Assembly: GCA_028715415.1 (NCBI GenBank)
Contig: JAQURX010000001.1
Location: 154,584-218,583 of the forward strand
Length of the DNA: 64,000 nt
Source of the DNA: Candidatus Omnitrophota bacterium
GTDB taxonomy: Bacteria; Omnitrophota; Gorgyraeia; Gygaellales; Profunditerraquicolaceae
Direction of reading: 5' to 3'
The notes beneath the pieces were generated by a model. The model had not been told where the DNA came from, ran no database searches, and was given only the letters and a program-made list of their open reading frames with translations. Position numbers and translations under genes: made by a program. Numbering within the stretch: the first letter of the stretch is position 1; each line of letters opens with the position of its first letter. Positions 25,970 to 60,594 of the stretch are shown one piece after another.

Positions 25970-26437
25970 TTATTTTTCCCAATTATTTACATCGTCTTCA
26001 TTGCCTTCAGTGGCATCTTTTCCTGATGAATATAAATCATAATCTTTTCTGTTGGTGCCCGGGCTTTTGTAATGATAAGGATTACCCCATGGGTCAAGCG
26101 GCTTTTTCTCTAAATATGGGCCTTTCCAGTTTTTTGCCGAAGAGGGCGCGGTTATAAGAGCTTCAAGCCCCTCTTCTGTGGTTGGGAAAGCGCCGTTATC
26201 TAGTTCATACATCTTAAGCGCAGTAGCTATGTTAAGCTCGACATCAGCTTTGGCAACTCCTTTTCTTGCTTCTTCGGATCTGCCTGTTAACCTCGGCACG
26301 ACCATTGCTGCTAAAACACCTATAATAATGACTACTAACATCAGCTCTACCAGGGTAAAAGCTTTTCTTTTTAACATTTTTTCCTCCATTGTCACTTTAG
26401 TATTCAATCCAATTCCTGATCTTTCCTTTATCATCAA
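25970..26437 (-). CDS. gspG: Type II secretion major pseudopilin GspG
   Basis: Prepilin N-terminus (MLKRKAFTLVELMLVVIIIGVLAAM) with Glu+5. GspG C-terminal pattern (WKGPYL...DPWGNPYHY). The probable true start is an internal Met (~26377). Confidence 0.8.
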   Translation of the reverse strand: MMIKERSGIGLNTKVTMEEKMLKRKAFTLVELMLVVIIIGVLAAMVVPRLTGRSEEARKGVAKADVELNIATALKMYELDNGAFPTTEEGLEALITAPSSAKNWKGPYLEKKPLDPWGNPYHYKSPGTNRKDYDLYSSGKDATEGNEDDVNNWEK

Positions 26438-27299
26438 GGGTTATCTCGTATTTCATTGTTGAGTTATCTAAGATCTTGCCATCTGCTTTAATGGTAAAAC
26501 TACTGGATTTTACATCGATAGTGCTGTTTCCAACCAAGCTTGCCAGTAGAAGTTCTTCTTCGGTTGAGAGACTGCTGAATGAATTTAATTTGCTAATTAC
26601 CTCAGAGGTGTTTTCAAAGAAATTGTCGTCTTTGGTTGCCTCTTTGTTATCTGGACCATTACGGAATTCAATTATTGTTTTAGCCAAGCTATCGCTTAGC
26701 CCTAAGGCTTTTAATGCTTCTGTGCCAGCAGTGTTGATGTTAACTTTTCCATTACCATATATTGTAATACTATTCTTACAGGAATCAAAAACTTTTTCCT
26801 CGAAATCTTCAATATTCAAAAGTTCTTCTTTCACTCTTAATGGCTGTTTTGACCTGTAGGCAATTATTGATTCAGCTAGCTTTTGGCTGGCCGCATCGGA
26901 TAAATCAGAGGTGTTTTGTAATAGCCTTTCAATTATGTTTTGGCTGGCAGAATTCATATTAATTTTGCTTTCTTCGTCAACCAATACATAAGTTAACTTT
27001 CCTTTGCCAATTGCTATCTCTTTTTCTTCTCTTAGATTGTACAGATTGTCGTAAGCATGCTGAGTTTTTTCACCTTTTGCTTCTTTGTGATTTGCCATGT
27101 AGACGCAAGCAGCAAGTGCAAGATGCCTCGGCAGTATCCTGCCTTCTGTGCGGCGCGCTAATCTGATCTGAGTTGATATTATGTTGTATAATCCGAGAGA
27201 TAGTATTAGAAAGAAAGCTAGTACCCAGATTGAGACAACAAGGATGCTTCCCGAATTATGATATCGGTATTGGGATTGTTTTGGTGAATTCTTTATCAT
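26397..27299 (-). CDS. gspK: Type II secretion minor pseudopilin GspK
   Basis: N-terminal hydrophobic helix. GspK hallmark YVLVDEESKINMNSAS. Helix-hairpin-helix VNINTAGTEALKALGL. Confidence 0.7.
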   Translation of the reverse strand: MIKNSPKQSQYRYHNSGSILVVSIWVLAFFLILSLGLYNIISTQIRLARRTEGRILPRHLALAACVYMANHKEAKGEKTQHAYDNLYNLREEKEIAIGKGKLTYVLVDEESKINMNSASQNIIERLLQNTSDLSDAASQKLAESIIAYRSKQPLRVKEELLNIEDFEEKVFDSCKNSITIYGNGKVNINTAGTEALKALGLSDSLAKTIIEFRNGPDNKEATKDDNFFENTSEVISKLNSFSSLSTEEELLLASLVGNSTIDVKSSSFTIKADGKILDNSTMKYEITLDDKGKIRNWIEY

Positions 27300-27825
27300 T
27301 GTATTTAGCGGTAATTTTTAGCGCAAGAAACATTCCATTTTCTGGCTTCCAGCTTTCTGACCAGATGAAGGTTTTTTTAGCCTTATCGTAGGATAAACAA
27401 CTTACTGAAAAGCTTGTCATGTCCATGATTTTTTCTTCCAAGCCTTCTTTCTCGCTATCCTTACTGATATCTTTTAAATCAATTTGGCTGCGCATTAGAG
27501 CTTTTGAATTTTCGTCAAATCTATATAATATTTTGACAATTTTATTATTTATAATTGAAGGGAATGAAAATCCGCTAATGCTTCCGGAGTCTTGAGTTTC
27601 AGGATTAACAGCAAAACCGATCTCTTTTATATCAACGCTTTGTTGTAATTCTTTTGATATCTTTTCAAAAACAAGGATTGCTTCATTATAGTCTTTACTT
27701 AAATCCTGCGCACGCCTCCATATTTTTACTCCTGAAACAAAACTTGTCGCAATGCCTGTTCCGATAATTGCGAAAATTACTGTTACAACTAAAGTTTCAA
27801 CGAGAGTGAAGCCTTTGTGCCTCAT
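27256..27825 (-). CDS. gspJ: Minor pseudopilin (GspJ-like)
   Basis: Prepilin N-terminus (MRHKGFTLVETLVVTVIFAIIG). Size and position between the GspI and GspK genes. Confidence 0.55.
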   Translation of the reverse strand: MRHKGFTLVETLVVTVIFAIIGTGIATSFVSGVKIWRRAQDLSKDYNEAILVFEKISKELQQSVDIKEIGFAVNPETQDSGSISGFSFPSIINNKIVKILYRFDENSKALMRSQIDLKDISKDSEKEGLEEKIMDMTSFSVSCLSYDKAKKTFIWSESWKPENGMFLALKITAKYNDKEFTKTIPIPIS

Positions 27826-27826
27826 A

Positions 27827-28228
27827 TTATTTGCTCGCTTTTTTGCTTAAAAGGTATGTTCCTAAAGAAGCATCCTTTTTATTATTTCCTTGTTCCCATG
27901 AAACGCTGATTTGAAAATCAGTTATATTTTCTTCCAGTTCTTGAGCATTCCAGTTTAAATCCCCAATGCCCTCGTCTTTTGCTTGCGTTTGTTTTTCCGT
28001 TAAGAGCCCAAGTATATCCTGGTCTGAGGAATCAAATCCGTCTTTTGCCTGAGACCTTTTTTCTACTTCCGAGAGGACATTGTCAATGAATTCTACTTTT
28101 TGAACAATGCTATTAGAATAATCAAGTGCGGAAACAGCGCTTAGTAATGAACGCGCAATTCCTACCAGGCCGATTGCCAATATGCAGGTCGCTACCATAA
28201 GCTCAACCAATGTAAAAGCTTTTTTCAT
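27827..28228 (-). CDS. gspI: Minor pseudopilin (GspI/GspH-like)
   Basis: Prepilin N-terminus (MKKAFTLVELMVATCILAIG). 133 aa. Confidence 0.55.
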   Translation of the reverse strand: MKKAFTLVELMVATCILAIGLVGIARSLLSAVSALDYSNSIVQKVEFIDNVLSEVEKRSQAKDGFDSSDQDILGLLTEKQTQAKDEGIGDLNWNAQELEENITDFQISVSWEQGNNKKDASLGTYLLSKKASK

Positions 28229-28234
28229 AAAATT

Positions 28235-28765
28235 TTAATTTGGAATAATCAGGCTAACGGTAATATCAATCCTTAGGGTTGTTGCTTGTTCGTCTCTTGA
28301 AGAAATCGACAATTTGTCGAGTTTTATAAGAAGATTGCTATTTTGAATTCTGTTCAGGAATCCGAGCAGTTGTTCAGTATTTCCTTCAAGCCGAAGGTCG
28401 GCGCTACATTTATTATATTCTGGATTCTGTTCAAATTTATCTTGTGGCGCAAGGTTTAAAACTGAGATTCCCGATTCTTGGGTTATTTTTTCAATTTCTC
28501 TTAATAATTTCGCGACTATATCCCTTTCCTGAGTTTCAAAAGTAAGATACTTGCTATATGTTTGGTATTCCTGGGCAATTTTGTCCTTATTTTTCTGTAT
28601 GCTTATTCCTTTTTTCGCTATCGCTTCTTCTAATTTAATTTTCTTATTTAATTCAGCAATCTTTGTTCGAAAGCCTGATAGGACGATTTTATCTATAAAA
28701 AAGAATGCCAATAGGCAAACAACGAAACCAAATATTATTTTCTCTCTTTTTTTAAATTTAATCAT
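28235..28765 (-). CDS. gspM: GspM/PilO-like inner-membrane assembly protein
   Basis: Short cytoplasmic N-terminus, one TM helix, a coiled coil and a periplasmic alpha/beta domain. Position after gspL. Confidence 0.45.
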   Translation of the reverse strand: MIKFKKREKIIFGFVVCLLAFFFIDKIVLSGFRTKIAELNKKIKLEEAIAKKGISIQKNKDKIAQEYQTYSKYLTFETQERDIVAKLLREIEKITQESGISVLNLAPQDKFEQNPEYNKCSADLRLEGNTEQLLGFLNRIQNSNLLIKLDKLSISSRDEQATTLRIDITVSLIIPN

Positions 28766-30183
28766 TTGTTAGGTAGTTTAAATGCAATTTCAAAATCCGT
28801 TATTTCTTTGTCTTTAACCCTTCTCTTCCTGGTGTATTTAGTCTGTACGTCGCTAAAATAATTTGATTTTTCCAGTAAGTTGATAAACCTGAACACGTCG
28901 GATAATTGGAACGCCTGTCCTCGTAGGGTTATTGTGTTTTTGTCATCAATCCCGATAAAATTAAGCGCGATTTCTTCGGGGACTACTTTTAGCAGTTGGT
29001 TCATTATGAATAACGGTTTCTTGCGTTCAGATAGATAATTTTTGATAACTTCTGTTTTTTTGGCTTGATTTATTAATTCCTTGGCTTCTTTGTCAATAAC
29101 TCCCAGAAGTACGTCTATTCTATTAAGATAAGTCTGTTGGTTATAGATTTTTCCTAAGAATATCGCGCACACTATGCTAAATAAGTAAATTAAACTTATG
29201 CCTAAAACAAGCATTTCTTTTGTTTTTTCTCTTAAGGTTTTCTTGATTTGAATCTCAGGGAGGATGAAGGTAAGCCCATGGATCCCCTTATCTATGCAAA
29301 CCTCTGATATGGAAGTCATAGATACATCTGTAGGAATTTCGATTTTCTTTGTTTTGGAGAGTTCTTCAAAGTAATGGACAGGCGAAGATTTTACCGGGAT
29401 ATCTATCTCTTTTTCAATTACTTTGTTCAGTTCATTAATTATACTTGCTCCGGTTAAGAATATTTTAGCCGGTTTCTTATTAGCCTCTTCATTATAGAAT
29501 ATAAGCAGCGATTGTTTAATCTCTCCTAAGAGTTTCATAAGCCCTATATCATCTTTTGCTGCGATTGGATTTGCTCCTACGGGTATATTTCTTGAGAAGA
29601 GTAAGCCTTGTTTCGAGAAAACCAGGAAATCTGTATATGCAGAATCAATATCAAGGATTGCGTAGAAGTCGGTTTGATTTATTTCTGCCTTGTGGTTATC
29701 TAAAATCCATTGCAAGCTTTGATAGGAACTAAGCGCTATATTATCAGTGAAAAGCCCAGCTTTATCTAATACATTGGTTTGGCGCCTTAAAGCGTCAATT
29801 TGGATTATTGCTAAAATCACCTTTGAGTAACCCATTTCATCAACGCCGGATAGTTTGTAAGAGAAAATTATTTCTTCTCTTTTGTAAGGGACGACTCTTG
29901 CGATATGCAGCTCTATCATCTGAGATATCTCTTGAGGGTTTTGAGAAGGTAAGTGTAAATTTCTCACGGTTACAAAATCGCGAGGAATAGCGATAGAGAC
30001 TGTGTTTGCTTTTATCTTTTCTTGCCTGATAATCCCTGAGATTCTGCTTGCTATCTGTTCGTCGGTAAGGGCACTTATAGATTCAACGATGCAGTTGGTA
30101 ACAGTGGTTTGAGTTGCCAATGATTTCGTAGCAATGATTTTAAGGTACTGTTTATTGATTTCTATTGCGACAGATGTGCTCAT
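28762..30183 (-). CDS. gspL: GspL-like protein: cytoplasmic actin-like (PilM-type) domain, TM helix, periplasmic PilN-like domain
   Basis: ~320 aa cytoplasmic domain, TM segment (LVLGISLIYLFSIVCAIFLG) and a periplasmic C-terminus. Overlaps the gspM start. Confidence 0.55.
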   Translation of the reverse strand: MSTSVAIEINKQYLKIIATKSLATQTTVTNCIVESISALTDEQIASRISGIIRQEKIKANTVSIAIPRDFVTVRNLHLPSQNPQEISQMIELHIARVVPYKREEIIFSYKLSGVDEMGYSKVILAIIQIDALRRQTNVLDKAGLFTDNIALSSYQSLQWILDNHKAEINQTDFYAILDIDSAYTDFLVFSKQGLLFSRNIPVGANPIAAKDDIGLMKLLGEIKQSLLIFYNEEANKKPAKIFLTGASIINELNKVIEKEIDIPVKSSPVHYFEELSKTKKIEIPTDVSMTSISEVCIDKGIHGLTFILPEIQIKKTLREKTKEMLVLGISLIYLFSIVCAIFLGKIYNQQTYLNRIDVLLGVIDKEAKELINQAKKTEVIKNYLSERKKPLFIMNQLLKVVPEEIALNFIGIDDKNTITLRGQAFQLSDVFRFINLLEKSNYFSDVQTKYTRKRRVKDKEITDFEIAFKLPNK

Positions 30184-30184
30184 A

Positions 30185-31414
30185 TTAGTGCACCATTTGC
30201 GTAATTTGGAATGTTGGAAGTAATATGGCTAAAACGATTGTCCCTAGGATAACCCCCATTACCAGAATCATTAAAGGCTCAATTAGAGAAGTAATAAGCG
30301 CGATATCGGCTTCAATTTCCCGATTATAGGAATTATAAATTTCATCAAGCACGTCACTTAGCGTCCCTGATTCTTCTCCTACTGCAATCATCTTTGTAAA
30401 GAATTTCGGTAAGCTGGTGTAGTTCTCGGCACTTTTAGAAATCGTTTGTCCGGAAGCCACCTCTTTACAGACTTTTTTAAGCTCATCCTTTAAGGCTGGG
30501 TCTGAAATTGTAGGGATTGATACTTCTAATGATTTAAGTGCAGGGACTCCGCTTTTAATTAATAATCCGAAAGCACGCGAAAAATATGCAAGGTCTTGGT
30601 TCCTGCTTAATCTTTTAATGATAGGTAACTTAGTCCTTATCTTTACTAATATGTTAATAAAAGTAGAAGTTCCTTTTTTAAAATAGATATACAATATTAC
30701 AGCGGCTATTATGCCGGCAATAATATACCAGGTTTTATTAGAGAAGGCGCTTATTTGAAGGATTATTTTTGTAATGAGCGGCAGGTCTTTCCCAAGCCCT
30801 TCAAAAAGCGGTTTAAGTTTTGGTATGACAAAGTTTATAAGGATAAATATACTGGAAAGCCCAACCAGCATTAATAGTATTGGATACGCTAAAGCTACTC
30901 TTATTTTAGTCCTTAGGTTGTCCTCTCTTGTTAGAAAATCGCTTATCTGTTCAAGGGCGAAATCAAGCTTTCCACTTGCCTCCCCTGCTCTTATTAGATT
31001 GATAAAAAGAGTTGAAAATATATTGGGGAATTTTGCAAGTGAATCGGAGAAAGTTTTGCCTTCTTTTGTTGCGTTATAGATTTCATGGATTACTTCTCTA
31101 AAACGTTGGTTGTCGGCTTGCTCATAAATAATCCTTAAGCTGGAAAGTAACTCAACACGGGCTCTTATCAGGGTAGTTAGCTTCAGGGTAAATTGCAGGA
31201 TTTCTTTAGAAGAAATTTTCTTGTTGATGATGACTTTCGCTTTTTTTGTTTTTGAAGTTCCTGCATCAGCTGCTGTAGTATGTTCTGAAATTGAAATAGG
31301 GAAAAGCCCTTGGGAGGTTAATTTATTTACGGCATCATCCCTGTTTATTGCTTCAATATGTCCATCAACAGTTTGATGCAATCCCTTTTTTGCTTTATAG
31401 ATAAATTTTGGCAT
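30185..31414 (-). CDS. gspF: Type II secretion inner-membrane platform protein GspF
   Basis: Two GspF/PilC repeats and three TM segments. 409 aa. Confidence 0.85.
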   Translation of the reverse strand: MPKFIYKAKKGLHQTVDGHIEAINRDDAVNKLTSQGLFPISISEHTTAADAGTSKTKKAKVIINKKISSKEILQFTLKLTTLIRARVELLSSLRIIYEQADNQRFREVIHEIYNATKEGKTFSDSLAKFPNIFSTLFINLIRAGEASGKLDFALEQISDFLTREDNLRTKIRVALAYPILLMLVGLSSIFILINFVIPKLKPLFEGLGKDLPLITKIILQISAFSNKTWYIIAGIIAAVILYIYFKKGTSTFINILVKIRTKLPIIKRLSRNQDLAYFSRAFGLLIKSGVPALKSLEVSIPTISDPALKDELKKVCKEVASGQTISKSAENYTSLPKFFTKMIAVGEESGTLSDVLDEIYNSYNREIEADIALITSLIEPLMILVMGVILGTIVLAILLPTFQITQMVH

Positions 31415-31418
31415 TATT

Positions 31419-35373
<3,955 letters not shown>

Positions 35374-35382: not shown

Positions 35383-36867
35383 TTAAGTGTTTTTATTTAA
35401 CAATTCCGTTTTTACAGCTTTAAAGAAATCGGCGATCTTTTTATCCAGCTCCATTTTTATTTCAGGGGTAAGCTGTTTTTTATCTTTAATTTGTTTAATA
35501 AGTTCCGGACTTTCTTTGTATAAATATGGACAGAAGCCTTCTATATACTTTTTCAAGAACTCAACAGGAACTGCTTCTAGGATTTTTCTTTTAAAAGCGT
35601 AAAAAAGCACAATCTCTTCTTCTAACGGGATAGGATTGTTATTAGACTGCATTAATATCTGCCGCAGGGTTTCTCCGCGTTGTAGTTTCTCCGAAGCTTC
35701 TTTAGAAAGCCGGGTTCTAAGTTTTGTTAAGCGCAGCATTTCTCTGTATTGGGTATACTCAAGCCTAAGCCCGCTTCCAAGCTCTTTAATCGCTGGATAC
35801 TGGACTTTGCTTCCAATACGGGAAACTGAAAGCCCGACGTCAATTGCGGGCTTAAATCCTTCCCGGAATAGCGGGGTGCTGATATAAATTTGGCCATCAG
35901 TAATTGAGATAAGATTAGTCTGAATGTACCCGGTAATATCTCCTTGTAATGTTTCAGCAATAGGCAGGAATGTCATTGAGCCGCCACCTAATTCTTTTCT
36001 CAGCTTGGCCGCTCGTTCAAGAAGCTGGGAATGCAGATAGAAAATATCTCCCGGGTAAGCTTCTCTTCCGGGTGAGCGCTCAAGGAGTAATGACATTTGC
36101 CGATAGATCCATGCATGTTTTGTTAGATCATCAAATACAACGAGTACACTTTTTCCCGCATACATAAAGTATTCTCCCAAGGCGGATGCAACGTATGGGG
36201 CAAGGTATTGTTCGGCTGCAGGAGTGTCTGCGGAAGCAGAAACGACAATCGTATATTTTAAAGCGTCTTTATCCAAGAGAGAGTAAATAACTTTTTTTAA
36301 CGCTGTCTCCGGACCGCCTATCCAGCAATAAATACAAATAACATCTTTATCTTTCTGGTTGATGATAGAGTCTATCCCAATGCTTGATTTACCGCTTTGT
36401 CTATCCCCGATAATAAGCTCTCTTTGGCCTTTTCCAACAGGGATGATGAAATCAACAATTTTAACTCCGGTAAGCATAGATTCGGTAACCGGTTCTCTTT
36501 CCATTACTCCGGGAGCTTGCCTAAAAACAGGGTAAAAATCGCTTGCTGCAATTTCACCTTTATTATCTATCGGTTCGCAAAGGCTGTTAACAATCCTTCC
36601 GATAAACTTTTCTCCAACAGGGACATTAATGATCTCGGCAAGCGAGCTAACAATTTCTCCTACTGAAACTTTGTTTTCTTGCCCAAAAATAATTACATTA
36701 ACATCTTCTTGGGTAAAGCCGATAACCATTCCTTTGATGCCTTGGGGGAATTGAATTAATTGACCGTAGACGCAGGAGGGTAAACCATCAATCTTTATGA
36801 TGCCGTTTTTTACTTCTTTGACTGTTCCTACCTCTTTTATGTCTAATGTTGGTATGTTTATACTCAT
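35383..36867 (-). CDS. atpA: F1 ATP synthase alpha subunit
   Basis: P-loop GDRQSGKS. 494 aa. Confidence 0.9.
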   Translation of the reverse strand: MSINIPTLDIKEVGTVKEVKNGIIKIDGLPSCVYGQLIQFPQGIKGMVIGFTQEDVNVIIFGQENKVSVGEIVSSLAEIINVPVGEKFIGRIVNSLCEPIDNKGEIAASDFYPVFRQAPGVMEREPVTESMLTGVKIVDFIIPVGKGQRELIIGDRQSGKSSIGIDSIINQKDKDVICIYCWIGGPETALKKVIYSLLDKDALKYTIVVSASADTPAAEQYLAPYVASALGEYFMYAGKSVLVVFDDLTKHAWIYRQMSLLLERSPGREAYPGDIFYLHSQLLERAAKLRKELGGGSMTFLPIAETLQGDITGYIQTNLISITDGQIYISTPLFREGFKPAIDVGLSVSRIGSKVQYPAIKELGSGLRLEYTQYREMLRLTKLRTRLSKEASEKLQRGETLRQILMQSNNNPIPLEEEIVLFYAFKRKILEAVPVEFLKKYIEGFCPYLYKESPELIKQIKDKKQLTPEIKMELDKKIADFFKAVKTELLNKNT

Positions 36868-37599: not shown

Positions 37600-37821
37600 T
37601 TATTTAAATAGGTTAAAAACAACCAAAAGTGCAATAATAGCAATTGCTTCAGCAAAAATAAACGCGATAATCATTGAGATGAGGATTTTTGGGGCTGCTG
37701 AGGGGTTTCTCCCTACAGCTTTTACTGCAGCATAACCGATAATGCCAATTACAGCCGCGGGCCCAAGTGTGCTTAAAAACATGATTAAGGCAATCGTGAA
37801 ATTACGCATATTCCTCCACAA
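37600..37821 (-). CDS. atpE: Fo ATP synthase c subunit
   Basis: Two-helix hairpin with the conserved carboxylate (FIFAEAIAII) and GxGxGxG-like N-helix packing. Confidence 0.8.
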   Translation of the reverse strand: MWRNMRNFTIALIMFLSTLGPAAVIGIIGYAAVKAVGRNPSAAPKILISMIIAFIFAEAIAIIALLVVFNLFK

Positions 37822-38047
37822 GTATTGTTAAATCGTTTCTTGACATTTTAGCAACGCCATATTTTATCATTATACGATTTTCTTTAAGAGGATCTAGTCT
37901 TAGCGTAACAAACCCGCTTCTTAGACGGCATAAAAAAGGCTGATGGAAATCTAAAACTGTAAGCTCTCCGTCTTCTCCGGGCAAGACAGCTTCTTTTATA
38001 TTTCCCTCAAAAATGATTTTTCTTGTATCCATTAACGAAACATTCAT
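37802..38047 (-). CDS. atpC: F1 epsilon subunit, N-terminal beta-sandwich only (no C-terminal helical hairpin)
   Basis: AVLPGEDGELTVLDFHQPFLCRLRSGFVTL matches the epsilon beta-sandwich motifs. 81 aa. It is the first gene of the operon. Confidence 0.6.
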   Translation of the reverse strand: MNVSLMDTRKIIFEGNIKEAVLPGEDGELTVLDFHQPFLCRLRSGFVTLRLDPLKENRIMIKYGVAKMSRNDLTILVEEYA

Positions 38048-48700: not shown

Positions 48701-51700
48701 GCTGGTTAGTGATGGTCCTTTCCATTCTCCCCAGCTTATGCCATCAGTAGAAGATCTTAATTGGAATCTAACATCGGTTCCGGGCAATAAGCTTTCGCCC
48801 CAGTTTACCTTTAAGGCTCTGCTATTATCTGAGCCTAAGTTATAAGTGTTTGAAGTAATCTCTTGTTGGGCAACCGGGTATCGTGTGTAGTCTAGTTCAA
48901 GTTTGTGCAAGATTGGTACTTCGGTACTGTTGTTGCTGCTAAAGTTGAATTTATATTGGACGTATTTATCTTTTGATTTTGCAGAAGCAGCGCTATTTAT
49001 ATTAGCTGTATATTTAGTCATGCCATCAACTACTTGGGGTGCCGAAATCTGCCTAAGGTCTATAGTTTTACTCCAGGCAGTCGCGTTACTCATGTTAGAT
49101 TTATCGCTTGTCCTTATGGATGGGCTTATTGATTGCAGGCCATTTGTAAACCATCTAAATTGCCCCCAGTCCGCATGTTTTCCAATTTCTTTTACGCTTG
49201 ATATATAATCACCAAATGAAAAGGCGTATAGTTTTAAGAAATCATATCTGCTTTGCCCTCTTAATGCATAGAAATATTTTCCTCCAGGGCAGGCCAGGGT
49301 TCCGGGAGCTTTTATTCCAACCGGTAAATTAGAGAATTCTGACCAGGTATTATTCACGAAATCGTATCTTAATACAACAGAAGAAGAATAATCTTGGTTA
49401 TAGTTTGTGCCTTGTAAGACATAAAAGTAATTTCCAAATCCCGGATAAATTAATTTACTGTTGTTATTATAAAATACCGCAGGAGCAAGTGCGAATTCTC
49501 CCCAGGCAGCGGGCCCGGCAAGATTATCTTTTGTAGTGTCAAATTTATATATCGTTGGAGAATTTGCGCCTCGCATTACCCATATGTAATTACCAGAGCC
49601 CGGATAAACCATACTAGCTCCCCAGCCTATTGTATCTGGGGTTGTGCTAAATAATGTCTGCCAGCTGTCATTTATCAAGTTGTATTTTAATACCGTTGTA
49701 TTACCGCTGGGCAATGCATAAATAGAGTCGTCTTTCCATACTAAGGAAGCGCCATAACTCCATGATACCGGAGAAGATCTTTTGCTTTCCCATGTATTAT
49801 CTGCTATTGAATAACGGTAAAAACCAGTTGAACTGACTCCTTGTGCAACATATATATAAGCGTTTCCTTGGAATTCTGCTATTGTCATAACAGGTGACCA
49901 GTTGCTTAAGTCAAAATTCGGGGTTTCCAAATTATCCCATATATCCGTTTCTGTATTATAGCGTAAAAGTTTTGTTCCCGAGCCTGTATAGTTTAATACA
50001 AAGACGTATCCTTTGTAACCAATTGCAGCGCTTCTGTAGCTTAATAGTTCTGGAATCCCTTGAGGTTCGTTCCATTTGTTATCATTTGGAGAATAGCAGT
50101 AAAAACGGTCATATTGAGGATTGTAAACATAAAGCATTTCTTTTGTTCCTCCCTGTCCGTCATCTACTGTTGCTGATACGATTGAATGGGCTGAACCATT
50201 AGAGTCAGTATTGTTAAAGGGTAGTTTAGCTATGTTTTCCCATTGTTTTGAAGTGTCTGCTTCATTAAAGTTATAACGCATTAAATAAGACGCAGGGTCT
50301 CTTGGGATACAATAAAGATATCGTCCATCATCTGGCGATGTTGAGTAAAAGAGAACTGCGCCAGTGTTTGCTACCACAGCTTCATTGTCTACGGAAATCA
50401 TACTCTGGGAAGAAATGTTTGAAGTTGGGTTAGGCATACTCATTTCAAAGAAATTTGTGTCAGTTTTATCTGGGTTAACGAAGAAGAGCCTTGGTAAACC
50501 ATCTTTGTTAAGGCCATATGTTAAAACATTGCTTCTGTAGAAATTTTGAGTAAAAGGTAAGGTCATGATTTCAGACCAGTTTCCGGAAACAGTATCAAAT
50601 TCGTAGAATTTATTTCTATTTGTTTTAAAGTTGCCCACTCCGGCAAAGAACAATGATTTTCTTTCGGGGCAATATATAATTTGAGTTCCAAGGGCAAAAG
50701 TTTCCGGGCAGCTGTTTGCAGTAAGGCTCCATGTTTTAGTGTTTAAATTATATTTATATAATTTATTTGTGATCCTGCCTCCAGTTGCATAGATTGTGCC
50801 TAAATCTCCTTGTGTACTGCTTGGTACATACTCTATTTTGGAGCCATTAATTTTAAAAGGAGTGCGGATAATATCTGCCCAGCGCCCCTTAGCAACAGAA
50901 TACACCCAAATTATATCTGTAAGAGTATTAGTTGCGTAAGGGCCATAACAAACATAAATATTTTTTTGGCTATCAATTGCTGTATTCCCCGTGCGATATC
51001 CTCCCATAGGTGTATAATCCATTAATGGGTCGCTCCATGCAGAAGCGAATAGATCACCGGAATTTACAAAATCAAAATCAAACTTATAGAATGATGGGTC
51101 TGGGTATGGAAGTGTATACAAACCTTTGTAATCACCTGTTGCTACATGGCAAAGTCCCATGCGATATTGGGAAAATGGAGTAGCCCCGGCAGAGGTCTTG
51201 ATTAGTTCGTTCCATGTTCCTTGAATGTCCCCAAGAGAGCCGGCTTCCAGGCAATATCTAGCCCAGGTAAAGCCGTGTTGTTCGTCGGCATGTCCGGAGA
51301 AAGCATAGATGTATTTTCCTTTGGTTCCTAAATCAACGTAGGTTAAACTGTTTCCTCCTGAGTAACAGGCCAAATAAACCGGAGAATCTGCCAATCTCTC
51401 CCAAGTATTAGTGGTAATGTCATATCTATAGAGTATGTAACTATCTCCATTTGTAGCGTAAATATATTGTCCACTACCCGGGTAAACTAAGTTTGTCCCC
51501 GGGGTAAAATACGGCCAAGTTGTTGGAGGGCTCGCCGGTGCTAAGTTAACCCATCCATTAGTAGTATCAAAGCGATAAAAGTCTCTTGTTCGGGAATTAG
51601 AGCTCCATTGAGTGCTCCAGTTTGTACCTCGGGTTGCATATATATAAGGAATATCCATATTTGGTGTGCCTACAGATGCAGGAACGCCAACAATACAAGA

Positions 51701-53390: not shown

Positions 53391-54398
53391 TTATTTATTT
53401 GGCACATTAAGTTTTTCCTCAAGCTGTTTTGTTTTTTCTTTTTCAATCGCAAGCCTTCTTTGCATGGCTTCCAAAGAAACTTTATCAGCGCGGTATTTCT
53501 CATCCAAATTCTTTATTATAACTGAGTTTTCATGTGCTAGTTTAAGGTTAATTTCACCTTGTTTCTTAAGCATCTCTTTTTGAAGATTTCTTTTAAGATT
53601 AAAAGTGACTTGAGAAAAGTATACAGATATAAAGATCAGTGCTATTACTGATAAAGCCCCAGTAACAAGAAAGAACCTTTTTTTTCTTTTAAATTCCGCA
53701 TCAGGTATAGAGCTATCAATTTCAGATTTATATTTTTCAACTTCAAGTTCAACTTTTTCTATAAAACCGTTTGTGCCAAGTACTGTCTTTTTATTGAGCT
53801 CTTTATTAATAAAACCACTTCTATCTAAAGAAAATTCTTTGATAAATTCTTGATGATCTTTATTTTTTAGATATTTTTTAGTTTCTTCAATTTCACTTGA
53901 GATATTAATGTCTAAACTTGGTTTACCTAAATAATTAGCGAAACTACAATAAGGATAAAGTTCCGGCTCTTTAACAATATTTAGGATTTTAGGATTAAGA
54001 TGAATATAGGAAGCAACCTCTAAAAGATGAGTTTCTTTTTCAACTAAAACCAGTTTAAACCTTTCTTGGAAAAGATGGCCTTTTCTTTCATATTTTGAAT
54101 TGAAATATTTTGTATAGTTTGCATTTAGGTCATGCATAATATCAGAAATTGTTAGTCCAGCTTTTAATTCAATCAATAAATGTAGATGGCTTGGGATCAG
54201 GCAGAAGGCGAATAATTTAAAACCATATTGTTCTTTATATTTCTTTAATAATTCAGCGTAGGTTTTATAATCTTGGACATCTCTAAAAATTTCTTCATTA
54301 TTATCACCGCGGCTTGTTACGTAGTATAGTGCGCCTTCAATAAATTTTTTAGGGACTTTAATCATTTTAAGCCACCTTTTCTTTTTAATGCGTTGCAT
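53391..54398 (-). CDS. IS200/RAYT-like Y1 HuH transposase-domain protein fused to a TM helix and C-terminal coiled coil
   Basis: N-terminal ~140 aa with Y1 motifs (YYVTSRG...FAFCLIPSHLHLLIEL and catalytic-Tyr region GHLFQERF...VASYIHLNPK). Then TM FFLVTGALSVIALIFISVYF and a coiled coil. Confidence 0.6.
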   Translation of the reverse strand: MQRIKKKRWLKMIKVPKKFIEGALYYVTSRGDNNEEIFRDVQDYKTYAELLKKYKEQYGFKLFAFCLIPSHLHLLIELKAGLTISDIMHDLNANYTKYFNSKYERKGHLFQERFKLVLVEKETHLLEVASYIHLNPKILNIVKEPELYPYCSFANYLGKPSLDINISSEIEETKKYLKNKDHQEFIKEFSLDRSGFINKELNKKTVLGTNGFIEKVELEVEKYKSEIDSSIPDAEFKRKKRFFLVTGALSVIALIFISVYFSQVTFNLKRNLQKEMLKKQGEINLKLAHENSVIIKNLDEKYRADKVSLEAMQRRLAIEKEKTKQLEEKLNVPNK

Positions 54399-54444: not shown

Positions 54445-54475
54445 AAAAAAAAATCCCAGGCATTTTACCTGGGAT
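54445..54475 (-). terminator. Intrinsic terminator forming the expression platform of the c-di-GMP riboswitch
   Basis: On the minus strand: AATCCCAGG-UAAAAUG-CCUGGGAUU followed by U9. Lies between the aptamer and the start codon at 54398. Confidence 0.75.
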
Positions 54476-54495
54476 TGGTTGTCTTAAGTTTCAAT

Positions 54496-54583
54496 CTTCG
54501 GTAATCTGCCTGTCCCGGAATTTTCCCGGGATGCACGACTTTGCGTCCCTTGATTACTCAAGGTTTGCCTTTTCGGATAAAGA
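54496..54583 (-). promoter_or_regulatory. Cyclic-di-GMP-I (GEMM) riboswitch aptamer
   Basis: Minus-strand RNA CCGAAAAGGCAAACC-UUGAGUAAUCAA-GGGACGCAAAGUC...CCCGGGAAAAUUCCGGGA-CAGGCAGAUUACCGAAG. Carries the two GEMM-I signature blocks (GGCAAACC and GGGACGCAAAG) flanking a GNRA-loop P2 hairpin, a P3 hairpin and the 3' UUACCGA.G element, as in V. cholerae Vc2. Confidence 0.8.
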
Positions 54584-54601: not shown

Positions 54602-54630
54602 AGTATACCATACGCTTGATTTCTTTTCAA
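54602..54630 (-). promoter_or_regulatory. Sigma-70-type promoter for the riboswitch-led transcript
   Basis: Minus strand TTGAAA-17 bp-TATACT, ~15 bp upstream of the aptamer. Confidence 0.55.
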
Positions 54631-54659: not shown

Positions 54660-54986
54660 TTAATTTGCTTTTTTTTGTTGTATGATTTTAGCTTTTTCTG
54701 TTAGCTCTTCCATACGTTTTTTTTCAATTTCCAGCTCTTTATATGTATTTTCTAAAGAAGGTTTACTATTATTGTATTTTTCCGATAATTTCTTGGTTAA
54801 GATCTCTTTTTCTTGATTAAGCGCTACTTTGAAGTCATTCTCTATTATTAAGCTAGCTGACTTGATTTCCACCTTGATACGCGCCATTTCAATAACAAAA
54901 ATAGCTACAATTATTAGAAATACAACGAATAAAATCAGATAAAAATAGTGCAGAAACTTTAGCTTTGGCATATTTAGATTGGACAT
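54660..54986 (-). CDS. Small TM plus coiled-coil protein, paralogous to the C-terminal module of the 53391..54398 fusion
   Basis: TM helix. LSEKYNNSKPSLE...LEIEKKRMEELTEKA aligns with LDEKYRADKVSLE...LAIEKEKTKQLEEKL of the Y1 fusion protein. Confidence 0.4.
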   Translation of the reverse strand: MSNLNMPKLKFLHYFYLILFVVFLIIVAIFVIEMARIKVEIKSASLIIENDFKVALNQEKEILTKKLSEKYNNSKPSLENTYKELEIEKKRMEELTEKAKIIQQKKAN

Positions 54987-55017
54987 TTTAATCTCAATTG
55001 GAACCAGATTGGACGTT

Positions 55018-57174: not shown

Positions 57175-57188
57175 TTTCCCTTTCCTTA

Positions 57189-59108
57189 TTAAAATTCTTT
57201 AATTCCTTTAAGTTTCTCTTGCACTTCAGTTTGTTTCGTATCCGGTTTAATTGAACTACCGGAAGTTTTTGGAGTTTGCAATGCTTCTAAGACGGCCTCT
57301 TCTTTCTTTGGCGACATCTTAATTTCTCCAACCTTTCTTTCAATAATATCCTCTTTAGTATCTTCTGCGACGATATCATAGGGAATCATTCTTTCAGGTT
57401 CGGTGCCTTGGAATAAATTCTCTCCGGAGATTAGATGTGGAGTAAGAAATACTATTAATTCTGTTCTCTTTTTTTGCTGGGCGTCAGAGCCAAAAGCAGC
57501 TCCAATAAGCGGTATTTTTGAAAACCACGGAAGTCCTACCCTATCTCTTCTGCTTTCATTTTTCATTAAGCCTGCAATCATAATCATGGTACCGTCTTTT
57601 ACTTTTACTACAGTTTCAGCTTCAGAAGTTTCTACGATTGGGATAGTGCTTTTTAGCGCAGTAGTAATTGTTTCCCTGACTGAACTGACTTCGGGTTTGA
57701 TTTTCATTGTAATATAGCCATCTTTATTAATCGTAGGAACAACGCTCAATTTAACACCGACGTCTATGAATTGGACGTTTTCTGAGGTGATTGTAGTAAC
57801 GTCAGATTGGCTTTGGGATTGTGAAATATAGGCTTCGCGGGAGCCAACCATAATTTTTGCCTCTTGGTTATTAATTGCAGCAATGCGGGGCCTGGAAAGT
57901 ATTTTTGTGGCTCCTATTGTATTAAGGAATTGCAGTGTGGTTGTGAATCTGTCTGCGGCAAGCGTTCCGAAAGTAAAGGTATAATTTGCAGCTGTTAATA
58001 ATGGCGAAGGTGTAAATGAAGGCGAAGCAGGAAGCGTACCTTTTAAGTCAATGCCGTGTATATTTTTATCTTGAATTAGTTTTTCCCAGCTGATTCCTCT
58101 TTGGTATTCATCTTTTAAGGTGATTTGCACGATTTCCGCTTCAATAAATACCTGTCGGGATTCTTCATCAATAGCCTTAACCATGCGCTTTAATTTCTTC
58201 ATTTTATCCGGCAGGTCACTAATGATAAGTTTTCCTGAGCGTTCATCAACAAAAACTTCACCCGGGCCGGTAGTTATTGCGCTTGCTATTTGAGTTTTTA
58301 TATCAGCGGGTTTTGCGTATTTAATATCAAATATTTCGGTTTGAGGAGATCGATCCAGGTCTTTGACAGTTTTCTCCATCTGATCTAATTTTTCTGGGAT
58401 ATCCAACATAATTATTGTGCCGGTTGCTTCGTCAACGATAATCTTACCAATGTCAGATTTAATTTGGCCAAGCGCATTAAATATGGTTGCCGGCTTTGCA
58501 AAATTCAATTTAAGGCTTCTGTATTTTCTTTTTTCATTGTATTTTTTTCCATATAGTCGTTCGTATTCGGAGGAAGTCATTATGTTTATTATTTCATTAT
58601 TTCTATCCGCGGCTAAATCTTGGCTTACTAAGACTACGTCAAGAGCGTCTTCAAAAGAAAGGTTATTTAAGAAGATGTTTACTCTCCCAGCGACACTCTT
58701 AGTTGGGACAATTGTGACTCCCATTTTTAAAGAAAGAATCCTAAAAAGCTCGTTGATATCAATCCCTTTTAAGTCAAGAGAGAGTCTTTCTTCTCCATCA
58801 ACTTTTACGCCTTTTGTAATTTCTTCTTCTGAAGCGACTTTGGTAGTACTAGAAGAAGAAATTGGCAGCAAAGCTGGATTTGTTGAAGGGTTATCAGTAG
58901 GATCCCTGGTGTCTTTTTGTTGTTCACTCGTTTGAGGAATTGGAGAGTTGTTGGGGAGAGGTGTATTTGCTGTAGGATTGCTTGGTTGCTGTGTACTGCC
59001 AGATTGAGCCTGTTGTGCATTATCCTGAGTAAAAGCATTTTTTAAAGAAATTAAGCCCAGTAATAAAATGAAAATTAATACAGTAGTTTTTTTATTAAAT
59101 AAGTTCAT
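57189..59108 (-). CDS. gspD: Secretin (GspD/PilQ family) with N-terminal Ser/Pro/Thr-rich linker and a ~90-aa C-terminal extension
   Basis: Signal peptide, N0/N1-like domains and the secretin core (LSRPRIAAINNQEAKI..., VVKVKDGTMIMIAGL, PLIGAAFGS). Confidence 0.85.
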   Translation of the reverse strand: MNLFNKKTTVLIFILLLGLISLKNAFTQDNAQQAQSGSTQQPSNPTANTPLPNNSPIPQTSEQQKDTRDPTDNPSTNPALLPISSSSTTKVASEEEITKGVKVDGEERLSLDLKGIDINELFRILSLKMGVTIVPTKSVAGRVNIFLNNLSFEDALDVVLVSQDLAADRNNEIINIMTSSEYERLYGKKYNEKRKYRSLKLNFAKPATIFNALGQIKSDIGKIIVDEATGTIIMLDIPEKLDQMEKTVKDLDRSPQTEIFDIKYAKPADIKTQIASAITTGPGEVFVDERSGKLIISDLPDKMKKLKRMVKAIDEESRQVFIEAEIVQITLKDEYQRGISWEKLIQDKNIHGIDLKGTLPASPSFTPSPLLTAANYTFTFGTLAADRFTTTLQFLNTIGATKILSRPRIAAINNQEAKIMVGSREAYISQSQSQSDVTTITSENVQFIDVGVKLSVVPTINKDGYITMKIKPEVSSVRETITTALKSTIPIVETSEAETVVKVKDGTMIMIAGLMKNESRRDRVGLPWFSKIPLIGAAFGSDAQQKKRTELIVFLTPHLISGENLFQGTEPERMIPYDIVAEDTKEDIIERKVGEIKMSPKKEEAVLEALQTPKTSGSSIKPDTKQTEVQEKLKGIKEF

Positions 59109-59112
59109 ATGT

Positions 59113-59760
59113 TTATCTTAACTCCCATTCTAACTGGTCTTTTCCTAAAATAACCTTTTCCTTAAGAATCTTTTTTATAAAAAGTTGCTTAAGCTGGTCT
59201 CCTGTGCTTAAAAGGTATGTTTTTTGGTCTTTAGAATCTTCAATCATTGCTTGAGGTTTATCTGACCAAAGAATTCCTACCAATTTAAGGCTACTTACTA
59301 TTTCTCCCATTTCAGGAGCAATTTTTGGAGGAGTGCCTACAGGAGCAGAAGGCGTATAAGTAAAAATGTTGTGTTTTTTTGCCAAGGCAATCGTGTCTGT
59401 TATGTTTGCTTCTTGTTTTTTAAGCATATCATCTTTTGTTTCGTAAATCGCTGCTTCTGCTTTTACTTGCTCAAGCCTCTTTTTTGAATTCGCCCCAAGC
59501 TTTATGAAATCCAGAATAAAGAATATTGTCAGGATACCGCAGAAAACAATAATTATCTTATTCGCAGTCCTTAAGTTAATAAATTGAGATAGGTTTTTGT
59601 TGCCTTGAAGCGTTTTTAATCCGGCAACAAAGTCTTTTAAGTTAAATTGTTTCTTTGCTCGTTCAGGTGGCACCTCCATGTTCTTTTCTGTCGATTGAGG
59701 ATTTTCAATTATTTTTAAAAGTTTTTCTTCGGGTGTTGAATTGTCTTTTTCTATTGGCAT
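59113..59760 (-). CDS. GspC/PilP-like inner-membrane secretin-associated protein (putative)
   Basis: Cytoplasmic N-terminus, one TM helix and a periplasmic beta-rich C-terminal domain. Immediately upstream of the secretin gene. Confidence 0.4.
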   Translation of the reverse strand: MPIEKDNSTPEEKLLKIIENPQSTEKNMEVPPERAKKQFNLKDFVAGLKTLQGNKNLSQFINLRTANKIIIVFCGILTIFFILDFIKLGANSKKRLEQVKAEAAIYETKDDMLKKQEANITDTIALAKKHNIFTYTPSAPVGTPPKIAPEMGEIVSSLKLVGILWSDKPQAMIEDSKDQKTYLLSTGDQLKQLFIKKILKEKVILGKDQLEWELR

Positions 59761-59763
59761 TTT

Positions 59764-60594
59764 TTAAGCGGTTACTTTAACTTCTTTTGAAATTAAATCC
59801 TGGATTATCCCTGCATCAACTACCGGCTTATTTTCCATGACAAGAGTTTTAAGCGCGTTGTGACAAAGCATTCCGATTCTGCGCGGGTAACCTTGGGTAT
59901 AAGAAAATATTTCTGAAATTGCCTCATCAGTAAACAAAGGAACTGGCTGAGTGTCCCCTGCTGCTTTAAGGCGAAACTCAATCATCTCTTTTGTTTCTTC
60001 TTCATCAAGTGGATTTAAAACATATTTAAGGCTTATGCGGTCCCAGAGATTTTTTATTGAGCGGATACTGGGAAGTAATTCCATTTGAGCAAGTAAAACT
60101 ACTTGGAGTAATTTGTATTCATTGGTTTCATAATTTAAAAGGACTCTCAGCGCTTCTAATGAAACGGTATTTAATTTCTGCGCTTCATCAATTAATAAGA
60201 CAACTGTCTTTTTTTCTTCAACGCCTTTTTGGAAAAGATATTTTTTGATTGCTTCCTTGTAATCAAGGATTGTGGGATTTGGTGAAAGGATGTCAATCTT
60301 GAAAGTCCTGATTAATGAATCAAGGAAAATTTGTTCAGTGTCAAATGTTGGATCAAGCACCATGTGAAAGATTATGTCTTCTCTTTCTTTTAACATTTGA
60401 AATACTTTTCTTGAAAGCGTAGTCTTGCCGGTTCCTACATCACCTAAGATAACATTAAGCCCGCGCTTTAAACGTATCTCAATCATGAGGCGCATCAATG
60501 CGGCTTTATGTTCTTTTGATTCATAAAAGAAATTTGGGTCCGGGCTTGTGGAGAAGGGTTCTTTATCTAATCCGAGTATTTTAAAGTAGCTCAT
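59764..60594 (-). CDS. gspA: ExeA/GspA-like AAA ATPase
   Basis: N-terminus FKILGLDKEPFSTSPDPNFFY. Walker A GDVGTGKTT. Walker B LLIDEAQ. Confidence 0.75.
   Translation of the reverse strand: MSYFKILGLDKEPFSTSPDPNFFYESKEHKAALMRLMIEIRLKRGLNVILGDVGTGKTTLSRKVFQMLKEREDIIFHMVLDPTFDTEQIFLDSLIRTFKIDILSPNPTILDYKEAIKKYLFQKGVEEKKTVVLLIDEAQKLNTVSLEALRVLLNYETNEYKLLQVVLLAQMELLPSIRSIKNLWDRISLKYVLNPLDEEETKEMIEFRLKAAGDTQPVPLFTDEAISEIFSYTQGYPRRIGMLCHNALKTLVMENKPVVDAGIIQDLISKEVKVTA

Follow-up and report, generated by a model that had tools for sequence, protein, structure and literature searches.

A conserved Omnitrophota gene cluster that probably combines a filament machine, a tethered giant adhesin-like protein and an F-type ATPase without an a subunit, with links to c-di-GMP

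Introduction

The window analyzed here is a stretch of 64,000 nucleotides of contig JAQURX010000001.1 (assembly GCA_028715415.1), from a Candidatus Omnitrophota bacterium. Between positions 60594 and 25970 it carries 26 genes, all on the minus strand, that probably encode one conserved Omnitrophota complex. In this complex a filament machine resembling both the T2SS (type II secretion system) and the mannose-sensitive haemagglutinin (MSHA) pilus would be combined with a tethered, giant adhesin-like protein and with an F-type ATPase that has no a subunit, the whole being linked to cyclic di-GMP (c-di-GMP). Omnitrophota are uncultured, ultra-small and thought to live attached to, or to prey on, other cells. 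The gene block would rank among the most conserved candidate attachment machines of this group.

The closest described loci are those of Seymour et al. 2023 (Nat Microbiol, PMC10066038), who reported a non-respiratory, 'symbiotic' F-type ATPase beside type IVa pilus (T4aP) gene clusters in Omnitrophota. The two were co-located within 10 kb on 57 of 66 contigs, and a role in host-cell attachment was proposed. TXSScan typing called the loci T4aP, and V. archaeovorus was found to express T4a pili. A tree of alpha subunits split a 'respiratory' clade from the symbiotic clade and placed alpha with the Mycoplasma type-2 and type-3 ATPases (PMC10066038).

The locus in the window is a member of this published kind. 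Its alpha and beta genes lie less than 10 kb from a T4aP-type set in an Omnitrophota genome, as in the published pairing, and in both cases a non-respiratory F-type ATPase is paired with a PilB/C/M/N/O/Q-type gene set. V. archaeovorus LiM is L032 in the present comparison, in which loci are cited by L-numbers. In contrast to the published placement of alpha with the Mycoplasma types, alpha and beta of the window score best with the canonical atpA and atpD models. The main text of Seymour et al. makes no mention of the subunit make-up, of a Kelch/LamG protein of 4-5 thousand residues with its anchor and protease, of the secretin block or of c-di-GMP; the subunit make-up, the giant protein with anchor and protease, and the c-di-GMP links are undescribed features of such loci. 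The organization, which an earlier note on this DNA had called highly non-canonical, is indeed so, but the pairing of ATPase and pilus genes had already been published in 2023 (PMC10066038). What changes is that the published remark of an ATPase next to pilus genes becomes a defined parts list: filament machine, adhesin with anchor and protease, c-di-GMP inputs, and ATPase.

A second set of related loci was described by West-Roberts et al. 2023 (10.1101/2023.11.21.568195), who found Omnitrophota T2SS-like loci beside giant genes of more than 25 kb. Like the window, these loci come from Omnitrophota and have gspD/E/F-type genes conserved beside very large genes. Their giants differ from the one in the window in being much larger, with many transmembrane segments and SecA-DEAD domains, at a locus that also has rcpC and a rotamase gene. 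The text of that paper mentions no ATP synthase, nor the subunit make-up, a protein of 4-5 thousand residues with anchor and protease, or c-di-GMP. A 2026 preprint, whose text was checked for terms on c-di-GMP, secretin and ATP synthase, draws no connection between the ATPase and a pilus or secretion locus, and its supplement holds no ATPase entries of the KEGG orthology (KO).

Results and discussion

Gene order and its conservation

The 26 genes follow one another with a single large gap of 261 bp, which holds a riboswitch; all other gaps are 54 bp or less. Upstream of the riboswitch gap stand the genes for an AAA_22 ATPase, a GspC-like protein, a secretin, three TPR proteins and a 108-amino-acid (aa) transmembrane protein. 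The gap is followed by a Y1_Tnp-like gene, the giant gene, a gene for a 275-aa protein (u275), a Peptidase_MA_2 gene and the ATPase genes in the order epsilon, c, b-delta, alpha, gamma, beta. The beta gene overlaps the GspE gene by 4 bp (33089-33092), and GspE is followed by GspF, PilM-PilN, PilO/GspM, two minor pseudopilins, a GspK-like protein and GspG (33092-25970). The genes listed in the earlier note were all found where it had placed them, on the minus strand. Its description of a gsp set in two blocks (60594..57189 and 33092..25970) around the atp cluster and the giant operon was borne out, as were the common orientation, the short gaps (apart from that of the riboswitch) and the 4-bp overlap of atpD and gspE. 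Named homologues of gamma, the secretin and u275 belonged to Omnitrophota in every case.

A scan of one genome per species yielded 75 species-level loci, onto which the window proteins were mapped by tblastn. Of the 52 loci whose downstream DNA was long enough, 49 keep the order epsilon-c-b/delta-alpha-gamma-beta followed by GspE. Adjacency of beta and GspE holds down to 31% gamma identity, with the two genes overlapping or nearly abutting. Among the 36 loci with at least 3.5 kb of upstream DNA, the giant gene lies 5' of the ATPase in 26 and u275 in 25. The secretin block was found upstream of the giant on six independent contigs, and the full order from AAA_22 to GspG on single contigs from three further organisms (k141_502126, JGI1356J14229_10000297 and Ga0265297_10000068). 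Because the same order recurs in dozens of species-level genomes, the arrangement is not due to chance. The comparison of synteny that the earlier note had suggested thus favors its reading of the region as one functional unit, a super-operon or regulon.

The same module is carried by a few loci labelled Rokubacteria, Binatia or Ratteibacteria. In L042 (10856-14227, PVC group bacterium Gpa_23), GspE and GspF are missing, and PilM-N and PilO come 35 bp after beta; the metagenome-assembled genome (MAG) concerned also contains the locus a second time, there in complete form (L076).

A local accident or a MAG assembly artefact, in which an IS200-like mobile insertion split an ordinary gsp operon, would also place foreign genes between two gsp blocks. 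A Y1_Tnp gene does head the inserted block, and the position of the secretin block varies among genomes. The Y1-like gene and its orthologues are:

53391..54398, minus strand: membrane-anchored Y1_Tnp (RAYT)-like protein, 335 aa, with a Y1 domain, one transmembrane segment and a coiled coil
L007 17380-18333, L008 13444-14403, L079 13379-14305, L094 8966-9985: orthologues of the Y1-like gene

The protein scores 56 bits with Pfam Y1_Tnp and 77.3 bits with NCBIfam REP_Tyr_transpos (cut-off 80). Aligned to E. coli TnpA-REP (4er8), it shows the HUH motif and the Tyr at the corresponding positions. The gene sits between the riboswitch and the giant gene, and the C-terminal coiled coil of its product bears an invariant DEKYRAD motif. 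It is found directly 5' of the giant in L007, L008, L086, L090 and L094, and further upstream in L079 and L088. The HUH motif, HLH in the window, reads NQIN in L008 and DKVY in L079 and is lost in both. Since the motif is lost there, the protein looks like a domesticated transposase fold that is non-catalytic in some lineages. An IS200 insertion as the cause of the gsp split was ruled out, the Y1-like gene being a conserved, membrane-anchored member of the locus. Against an accident or artefact in general stand the same order on many independent contigs from many species and an independent Logan assembly, which reproduces the junction from secretin to giant. It is hardly credible that the arrangement arose in this way.

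The assembly machine

The proteins of the upstream, secretin block are:

59764..60594, minus strand: AAA_22 ATPase of the ExeA/GspA/MshM kind, 276 aa (Pfam AAA_22, 62.9 bits)
59113..59760, minus strand: GspC-like bitopic protein, 215 aa, with one transmembrane segment (about residues 63-81) and a C-terminal domain like the homology region (HR) of GspC
57189..59108, minus strand: secretin, 639 aa (Pfam Secretin 155 bits, Secretin_N 73 bits)
56371-57174, 55746-56411 and 55018-55746, minus strand: three proteins with an N-terminal transmembrane segment and C-terminal TPR (Pfam TPR families)
54660..54986, minus strand: 108-aa transmembrane and coiled-coil protein that closes the block, with no family match

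Those of the downstream block are:

31419..33092, minus strand: assembly ATPase of the GspE/PilB/MshE type (Pfam T2SSE 428.6 bits, MshEN 51.7 bits)
30185..31414, minus strand: GspF/PilC platform protein (Pfam T2SSF 193 bits; TIGR02120 337.2 bits, cut-off 424)
28762..30183, minus strand: PilM-PilN fusion, GspL-like (Pfam PilM_2 at residues 20-205, PilN at 393-470; transmembrane segment at about 321)
28235..28765, minus strand: PilO/GspM-like protein (Pfam PilO 34.5 bits, T2SSM_b 29.8 bits; NCBIfam GspM 29.5 bits, cut-off 60)
27827-28228 and 27256-27825, minus strand: two minor pseudopilins with an N_methyl motif (leaders MKKA/FTLVE and HKG/FTLVE)
26397..27299, minus strand: GspK-like minor pseudopilin with an HHH_3 insert (Pfam HHH_3 54.6 bits; T2SSK 21 bits, cut-off 24.2)
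25970..26437 (likely start 26377), minus strand: major pseudopilin GspG (TIGR01710 153.5 bits, cut-off 88.85; T2SSG 118 bits)

The two blocks belong, as gene order in other loci indicates, to one machine whose secretin module has been relocated. Another group of loci, that of V. archaeovorus LiM among them, lacks a giant upstream, and AAA_22 stands there directly after GspK (after PilMN in L080). In all, AAA_22 directly follows the block running from GspE to GspK or PilMN in eight loci, and it is for this reason that both blocks are assigned to the same machine. The AAA_22 protein of the window is 70-78% identical to the gene product directly after GspK in the V. archaeovorus-type loci. By comparison, in L029, L030, L035, L044, L056, L066 and L069, where AAA_22 is the last gene and shows this same identity, gamma is only about 40% identical. 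Judged by these identities, the conservation of AAA_22 is unusually strong for an accessory ATPase.

For GspD, GspE and GspF the Pfam domain families are matched and the equivalog cut-offs are missed. GspE reaches 581.3 bits with its NCBIfam equivalog (cut-off 630), and PilB, at about 582 bits, is likewise under its cut-off. The secretin scores 231 bits with PilQ, 220.6 with GspD (cut-off 351) and 189 with MshL, none of which reaches the cut-off; an NCBI Omnitrophica MAG has a protein 100% identical to it, and source records often label the secretin MshL. The GspK-like protein has 38 bits with NCBIfam GspK (cut-off 130), and the minor pseudopilins show a weak match to GspJ, 21 bits against a cut-off of 65. 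The leader of GspG is KRKA/FTLVE.

Among the remaining proteins of the secretin block, the AAA_22 protein has no peptidoglycan-binding domain, and its top NCBIfam match, to the XrtA/PEP-CTERM-associated ATPase, reaches 182 bits, the cut-off being 324.5. Pfam and NCBIfam give no match for the 215-aa protein. A profile of five orthologues compared with the PDB found the GspC HR domain (3oss_C, E=0.0014; 7oio_A, E=0.0043), with PilP at E=1.4, so that the GspC-like assignment of the earlier note holds, if weakly. Each TPR protein has a single N-terminal hydrophobic segment, and one to three TPR genes trail the secretin in related loci. In L007 and L008 an open reading frame (ORF) of 94-95 aa stands in place of the 108-aa gene. 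The upstream block of L007 also has a second secretin gene, and a MacB/FtsX-type ABC set lies between the TPR genes and the riboswitch (7267-9045 and 13889-16692).

Profile scans of the locus genes with Pfam and NCBIfam gave no GspH, and neither PilT nor a PilA-type major pilin was found among the locus genes. As the earlier note had said, the window has no prepilin peptidase: no Peptidase_A24 was seen in its ORFs (nearly all of those of at least 100 aa), and a six-frame scan gave no prepilin-peptidase-like GxGDxK motif. The related locus L021 has a prepilin peptidase 6 kb upstream, between aroE and aroC.

With the classical T2SS (Gsp/Pul/Eps) the window shares GspG, E and F, GspL-like, GspM-like and GspK-like proteins, minor pseudopilins, a secretin, a GspC-HR-like protein and an ExeA/GspA-like ATPase. 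It differs in that most of its components score below cut-offs, GspH and GspO are missing from the locus and the genes are divided by unrelated ones, and also in that its assembly ATPase has an MshE-type c-di-GMP motif and its candidate cargo is a membrane-tethered protein of about 490 kDa. The Vibrio MSHA pilus is matched in the MshEN site on the ATPase, the MshL-like secretin, the MshM-like AAA_22 protein and the MshN-like TPR proteins. Unlike that system, the window has a major subunit that is GspG-like rather than MshA-like, no recognized mshI/J/K-type set, and an operon that encloses a rotary ATPase and a giant protein. The gsp-type genes named in the earlier note are real, but on the sequences compared here the secretion machine is a T2SS/MSHA-like hybrid, of which only GspG passes an NCBIfam cut-off that is specific for parts of a T2SS or type IV pilus.

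The same proteins could build an MSHA-like T4a pilus, a real surface fiber for adhesion or twitching rather than secretion, with the giant as an independent, co-regulated adhesin. This is possible, though we think it unlikely. The published TXSScan typing as T4aP and the reported expression of T4a pili by V. archaeovorus (PMC10066038) favor such a pilus, as do the matches to Pfam PilM_2, PilN and PilO and the frequent naming of the secretin as MshL. The MshM-like AAA_22, MshN-like TPR and MshEN-type ATPase proteins also fit the msh gene set. However, the major subunit, of 155 aa, scores above the cut-off of the GspG equivalog, the locus has GspK-like and GspC-HR-like proteins, and PilM and PilN are fused as in GspL. 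A locus without PilT or a PilA-type pilin, in which giant, anchor and protease are nested inside the operon in most species, argues further against such a pilus.

The giant protein and its anchor

Between the Y1-like gene and the ATPase genes lie:

39800..53341, minus strand: giant protein, 4513 aa
38961..39788, minus strand: 275-aa anchor module, u275 (AlphaFold2 model with a predicted local distance difference test score, pLDDT, of 84)
38102..38938, minus strand: exported zinc metalloprotease-like protein, Peptidase_MA_2 (Pfam 54.8 bits), with a signal-like N-terminus and HELGH (HExxH)

The giant, a candidate cargo of about 490 kDa, begins with a Sec-type signal peptide. Behind it come, by Pfam and sequence, Kelch propellers, a pair of DUF2341+Laminin_G_3 units, a long series of Ig-like repeats and, at the C-terminus, a coiled coil. 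In other loci this position is taken by orthologues of 4054-4995 aa. No tandem repeats were found in the DNA of the giant gene.

The AlphaFold2 model of u275 predicts a signal peptide, a beta-sandwich, a three-helix bundle, a transmembrane helix and a disordered, acidic cytoplasmic tail. Pfam has no model for this protein, and searches of the PDB by sequence and by profile were empty; comparison of the predicted fold with the PDB by Foldseek gave nothing better than E=0.06, with TM-scores below 0.25. A profile search of 1.84 billion representatives found 946 family members at 50% clustering, so that u275 stands for a large protein family with neither a Pfam model nor a PDB fold match. Many members of the family (proteins P0361-P0509) have 420-690 aa with two or three tandem copies.

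In at least 16 proteins of 1000 aa or more the u275 domain is C-terminal, and the match begins just past the signal-peptide positions. One of these, P0373 (4564 aa), is collinear with the giant of the window at 34% identity. Its homologue of the giant's last residues runs directly into mature u275 (48% identity from residue 24), and its gene lies in the order Y1, giant::u275, Peptidase_MA_2, atp genes, gspE, F and L. Because giant and u275 are fused in this Rosetta-stone manner in many relatives, the two proteins probably work together, and the giant is probably tethered to the inner membrane by the C-terminal transmembrane helix. The fusion also argues against a freely released T2SS substrate and favors a fiber displayed through the envelope. 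The earlier note had seen in the giant the obvious candidate substrate; a membrane anchor that is part of the same polypeptide in many relatives speaks against one that is freely released.

The Peptidase_MA_2 gene was found by tblastn in 18 of 36 loci. A repeat adhesin combined with a protease recalls the Pseudomonas protein LapA, which is exported by type I secretion and held back by an N-terminal retention module, with LapG as a cysteine protease and LapD as the c-di-GMP receptor. The likeness would be one of logic only: a giant repeat adhesin, an envelope anchor, a dedicated protease and c-di-GMP. The secretion, retention, LapG and LapD families of that system are not present in the window locus.

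Links to c-di-GMP

The 261-bp gap between the upstream block and the Y1-like gene contains:

54602..54630, minus strand: predicted promoter-like site, TTGAAA, 17-nt spacer, TG-TATACT (consensus scan 10/12, extended -10 TG)
54497..54579, minus strand: c-di-GMP-I (GEMM-I) riboswitch aptamer (Rfam RF01051, 66.1 bits, gathering threshold 35)
54452..54476, minus strand: intrinsic terminator with an 11-bp stem and a U run (terminator scan), 20 nt 3' of the aptamer

In 9 of 12 loci the long Y1-like gene is preceded by a riboswitch of the GEMM-I clan. Aptamers of the clan stand at the same position in L007, L085, L087, L089, L090, L092, L093 and L094. The loci of this comparison came partly from a metagenome scan with the Y1-like protein; peptide patterns were unspecific (9 loci). 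All eight RF01051 leaders examined, that of the window included, have a terminator of stem and U run after the aptamer. The window leader allows an alternative pairing, CAGGCA/UGCCUG. The fold that destroys the terminator has a predicted energy of -47.0 kcal/mol, as compared to -43.8 kcal/mol for aptamer plus terminator. This alternative fold is the more stable by 3 kcal/mol, which suggests an OFF-switch design in the window.

Two further observations were made on the aptamers. The orthologous riboswitches of L092 (1775-1860) and L093 (656-732) have GAGCAAAC in place of GGCAAAC. We take the GAGCAAAC change to be at the G20 position, where G20 to A presumably shifts GEMM-I towards 3'3'-cyclic GMP-AMP (3'3'-cGAMP). 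The aptamer of L094 (8805-8883) belongs to the variant family c-di-GMP-I-UAU (RF03168, 67.7 bits). Given these variants, the ligand of the riboswitch may differ between lineages.

A second link lies in the assembly ATPase. The N-terminus of GspE bears the tandem MshEN c-di-GMP motif (NF053729, 64.1 bits, cut-off 38), which is kept in 62 loci, and by this motif GspE would carry a c-di-GMP-binding site of the MshE type. A third is a gene for a response regulator-GGDEF (RR-GGDEF) protein, which stands directly 5' of epsilon in 38 of 48 loci, among them that of V. archaeovorus LiM. A fourth link, like the others independent of the rest, is a pair of PilZ-domain genes upstream in the window, which related loci do not share. 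As judged from these sequence features, c-di-GMP is tied to the unit at several levels: through the riboswitch, through the GspE motif and, in most relatives, through the RR-GGDEF gene.

The rotary ATPase

The six ATPase genes are:

37802..38047, minus strand: F-type epsilon of 81 aa, the N-terminal beta-sandwich only (Pfam ATP-synt_DE_N at residues 1-79)
37600..37821 (likely start 37809, 69 aa), minus strand: F-type c subunit (NCBIfam c models 25-28 bits, below cut-offs)
36878..37597, minus strand: fused b-delta stalk, 239 aa, one N-terminal transmembrane segment (Pfam ATP-synt_B 29.1 bits, OSCP 50.4 bits)
35383..36867, minus strand: F1 alpha (TIGR00962 577 bits, cut-off 484)
34489..35373, minus strand: divergent F1 gamma (Pfam ATP-synt 102.5 bits; TIGR01146 80 bits, cut-off 194)
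33089..34492, minus strand: F1 beta (TIGR01039 555.6 bits, cut-off 462.85)

The catalytic subunits keep their motifs. The P-loop and GER..E motif of beta are present in 68 of 68 loci. In alpha, most loci keep both P-loop (GDRQxGK[TS]) and Arg finger (LSVSR[IV]G), the latter in 59 of 68 alpha high-scoring segment pairs. In the c subunit, the RNP loop and the Glu of helix 2 (FAEAIA) are kept in 60 of 61 loci. Against the PDB, beta scores higher with canonical F1 beta (486 bits) than with beta of the Mycoplasma mobile G1-ATPase (338 bits). The N-ATPase and Mycoplasma families give alpha and beta lower scores, and neither subunit reaches their cut-offs (for the Mycoplasma families: MMOB1660 426 against 600 and MMOB1670 419 against 850; MSC_0619 331 against 520 and MSC_0618 405 against 570).

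The other subunits are more divergent, with gamma, epsilon, c and delta well under their family cut-offs. Epsilon matches TIGR01216 at profile positions 2-80 of 130 (57.6 bits, cut-off 67.25), and its orthologues have 78-83 aa. Over its full length the b-delta protein matches the N-ATPase b subunit weakly (TIGR03321, 39 bits). For gamma, the top PDB gamma reaches just 59 bits, and identity to V. archaeovorus gamma is 40%.

No a subunit (atpB) was found in the cluster, the window or about 85 related loci (about 1.3 Mb) by a scan for the stator-Arg motif and by Pfam scans of the flanks. A tblastn search of the loci and the window with E. coli AtpB returned nothing. A scan for polytopic ORFs that might be a-like gave only GspF and unrelated transporters; of two polytopic ORFs of L021 considered as a subunits, one encodes a prepilin peptidase and the other a TPR protein. 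The 'F-ATPase operon' of the earlier note stands as to its six atp genes, but the cluster has no a subunit gene, its epsilon is truncated, and b and delta are fused. A rotor ring and catalytic residues that are kept without a visible stator channel pose a real bioenergetics puzzle.

Bacterial F-ATPases are held back from hydrolyzing ATP by the C-terminal domain of their epsilon subunit. Since the epsilon of this locus is without that domain, its sequence points to an ATPase that most likely runs as an ATP-hydrolyzing motor.

The cluster might instead encode an ordinary ATP synthase, or the ATPase with which a fermenter generates its proton-motive force, having its a subunit elsewhere in the genome. 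Its adjacency to gspE would then come from operon history or, alternatively, from the fact that T2SS-type export also requires membrane potential. Alpha and beta do pass the atpA and atpD equivalog cut-offs, the nearest PDB relative of beta is a canonical F1 beta, and the catalytic residues and the c-ring Glu are conserved. In a 2026 survey of 176 complete Omnitrophota genomes, 125 had alpha and beta and no complete F1Fo was reported, so that this could be the sole rotary ATPase in many genomes. In the part of a published KO table that concerns one genome, F-type alpha and beta appear together with V-type I and K and without K02108. An a or V-type I subunit elsewhere in the genome would agree with this table, which is a lead only.

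Several observations speak against an ordinary synthase. No a subunit lies within 10 kb in at least 75 loci, the order epsilon-c-b/delta-alpha-gamma-beta is not that of a housekeeping operon, the regulatory domain of epsilon is missing, and the scores of gamma, delta, c and epsilon fall far short of the family cut-offs. An ordinary synthase is also hard to reconcile with GspE standing next to the cluster in 49 of 52 loci and at gamma identities as low as 31%. The published alpha tree sets this clade apart from the respiratory one (PMC10066038), and V-type ATP synthases have been reported for some Omnitrophota. Taken together, these points make an ordinary synthase improbable.

A more specific role for the hydrolyzing complex would be that of a rotary motor rather than an ion pump, with the c-ring or the b-delta stalk mechanically coupled to the T2SS-like platform or to the anchor of the giant. 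This coupling is a long shot. If it existed, F1 rotation would move or tension the giant fiber through the secretin. A diderm would then have its own equivalent of the motor behind M. mobile gliding, and F1Fo architecture would have a third use. M. mobile gliding (G1-ATPase with Gli349 and Gli521) resembles the window in joining F1-type alpha and beta to membrane-anchored surface proteins of several thousand residues. Movement or attachment on host surfaces has been proposed for both, attachment in Omnitrophota by Seymour et al. (PMC10066038). The window complex differs in keeping a c-ring and a b-delta stalk, in belonging to a diderm with a secretin, and in failing the Mycoplasma family cut-offs.

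A degenerate form of the locus was seen in L021 (7341-9933; CP070797.1, a complete chromosome). It has no epsilon, c or b-delta; the N-terminal half of its alpha is gone and the rest is fused to a PAS domain, with a stand-alone receiver domain before it. Its gamma, beta and gsp genes are intact.

Proposed working of the complex

From gene content, gene order, motifs, the fusion and the riboswitches, all read directly from the DNA, we infer the following steps. The giant would be exported by Sec and held at the inner membrane through u275, which is a separate polypeptide here and part of the giant in many relatives. The pseudopilus machine would then push or thread the giant through the secretin and so display it on the surface, where it would serve to attach the cell to others. 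Trimming or release of the giant may fall to the MA-family protease. The GEMM-I riboswitch and terminator ahead of the transcription unit that runs from the Y1-like gene through the giant and the ATPase to the gsp genes would place the whole under c-di-GMP control.

Certain observations weigh against this view of the region as a single c-di-GMP-linked complex. Only GspG passes a cut-off specific for T2SS or type IV pili, the secretin, E, F, M and K being under theirs. Giant and u275 are not upstream of the ATPase in 10 of 36 loci, V. archaeovorus included, and L094 has no secretin block within 10 kb. The riboswitch is not present in 3 of 12 loci. A clear alternative fold of the leader is seen in the window and L092 only, most orthologous leaders keeping the terminator either way, and this window has no RR-GGDEF gene. 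Finally, we know of no working mode for an F-type complex that has a conserved c-ring carboxylate but no a subunit.

Genes next to the locus

Upstream of the secretin block, beyond DUF2062, radical-SAM and DUF4416 genes, the window has two PilZ-domain genes (63074-63484 and 63643-63987, minus strand). The pair is not kept upstream of the secretin block in related loci.

Directly after GspG lies a 166-aa ORF (25436-25936, minus strand) with two transmembrane segments and, as its only domain, HisKA. In L001 this position holds a full dCache-HAMP-HisKA-HATPase kinase of 672 aa, and the copy in the window looks truncated. It is followed by an SOS-type cassette (23290-25377, minus strand), in which a LexA gene and a 104-aa ORF stand together with a Y-family (IMS) polymerase gene. 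Among the promoter-like sites of the region the best, TTGACA with an 18-nt spacer and TATATT (11/12 matches), is at 25393-25364.

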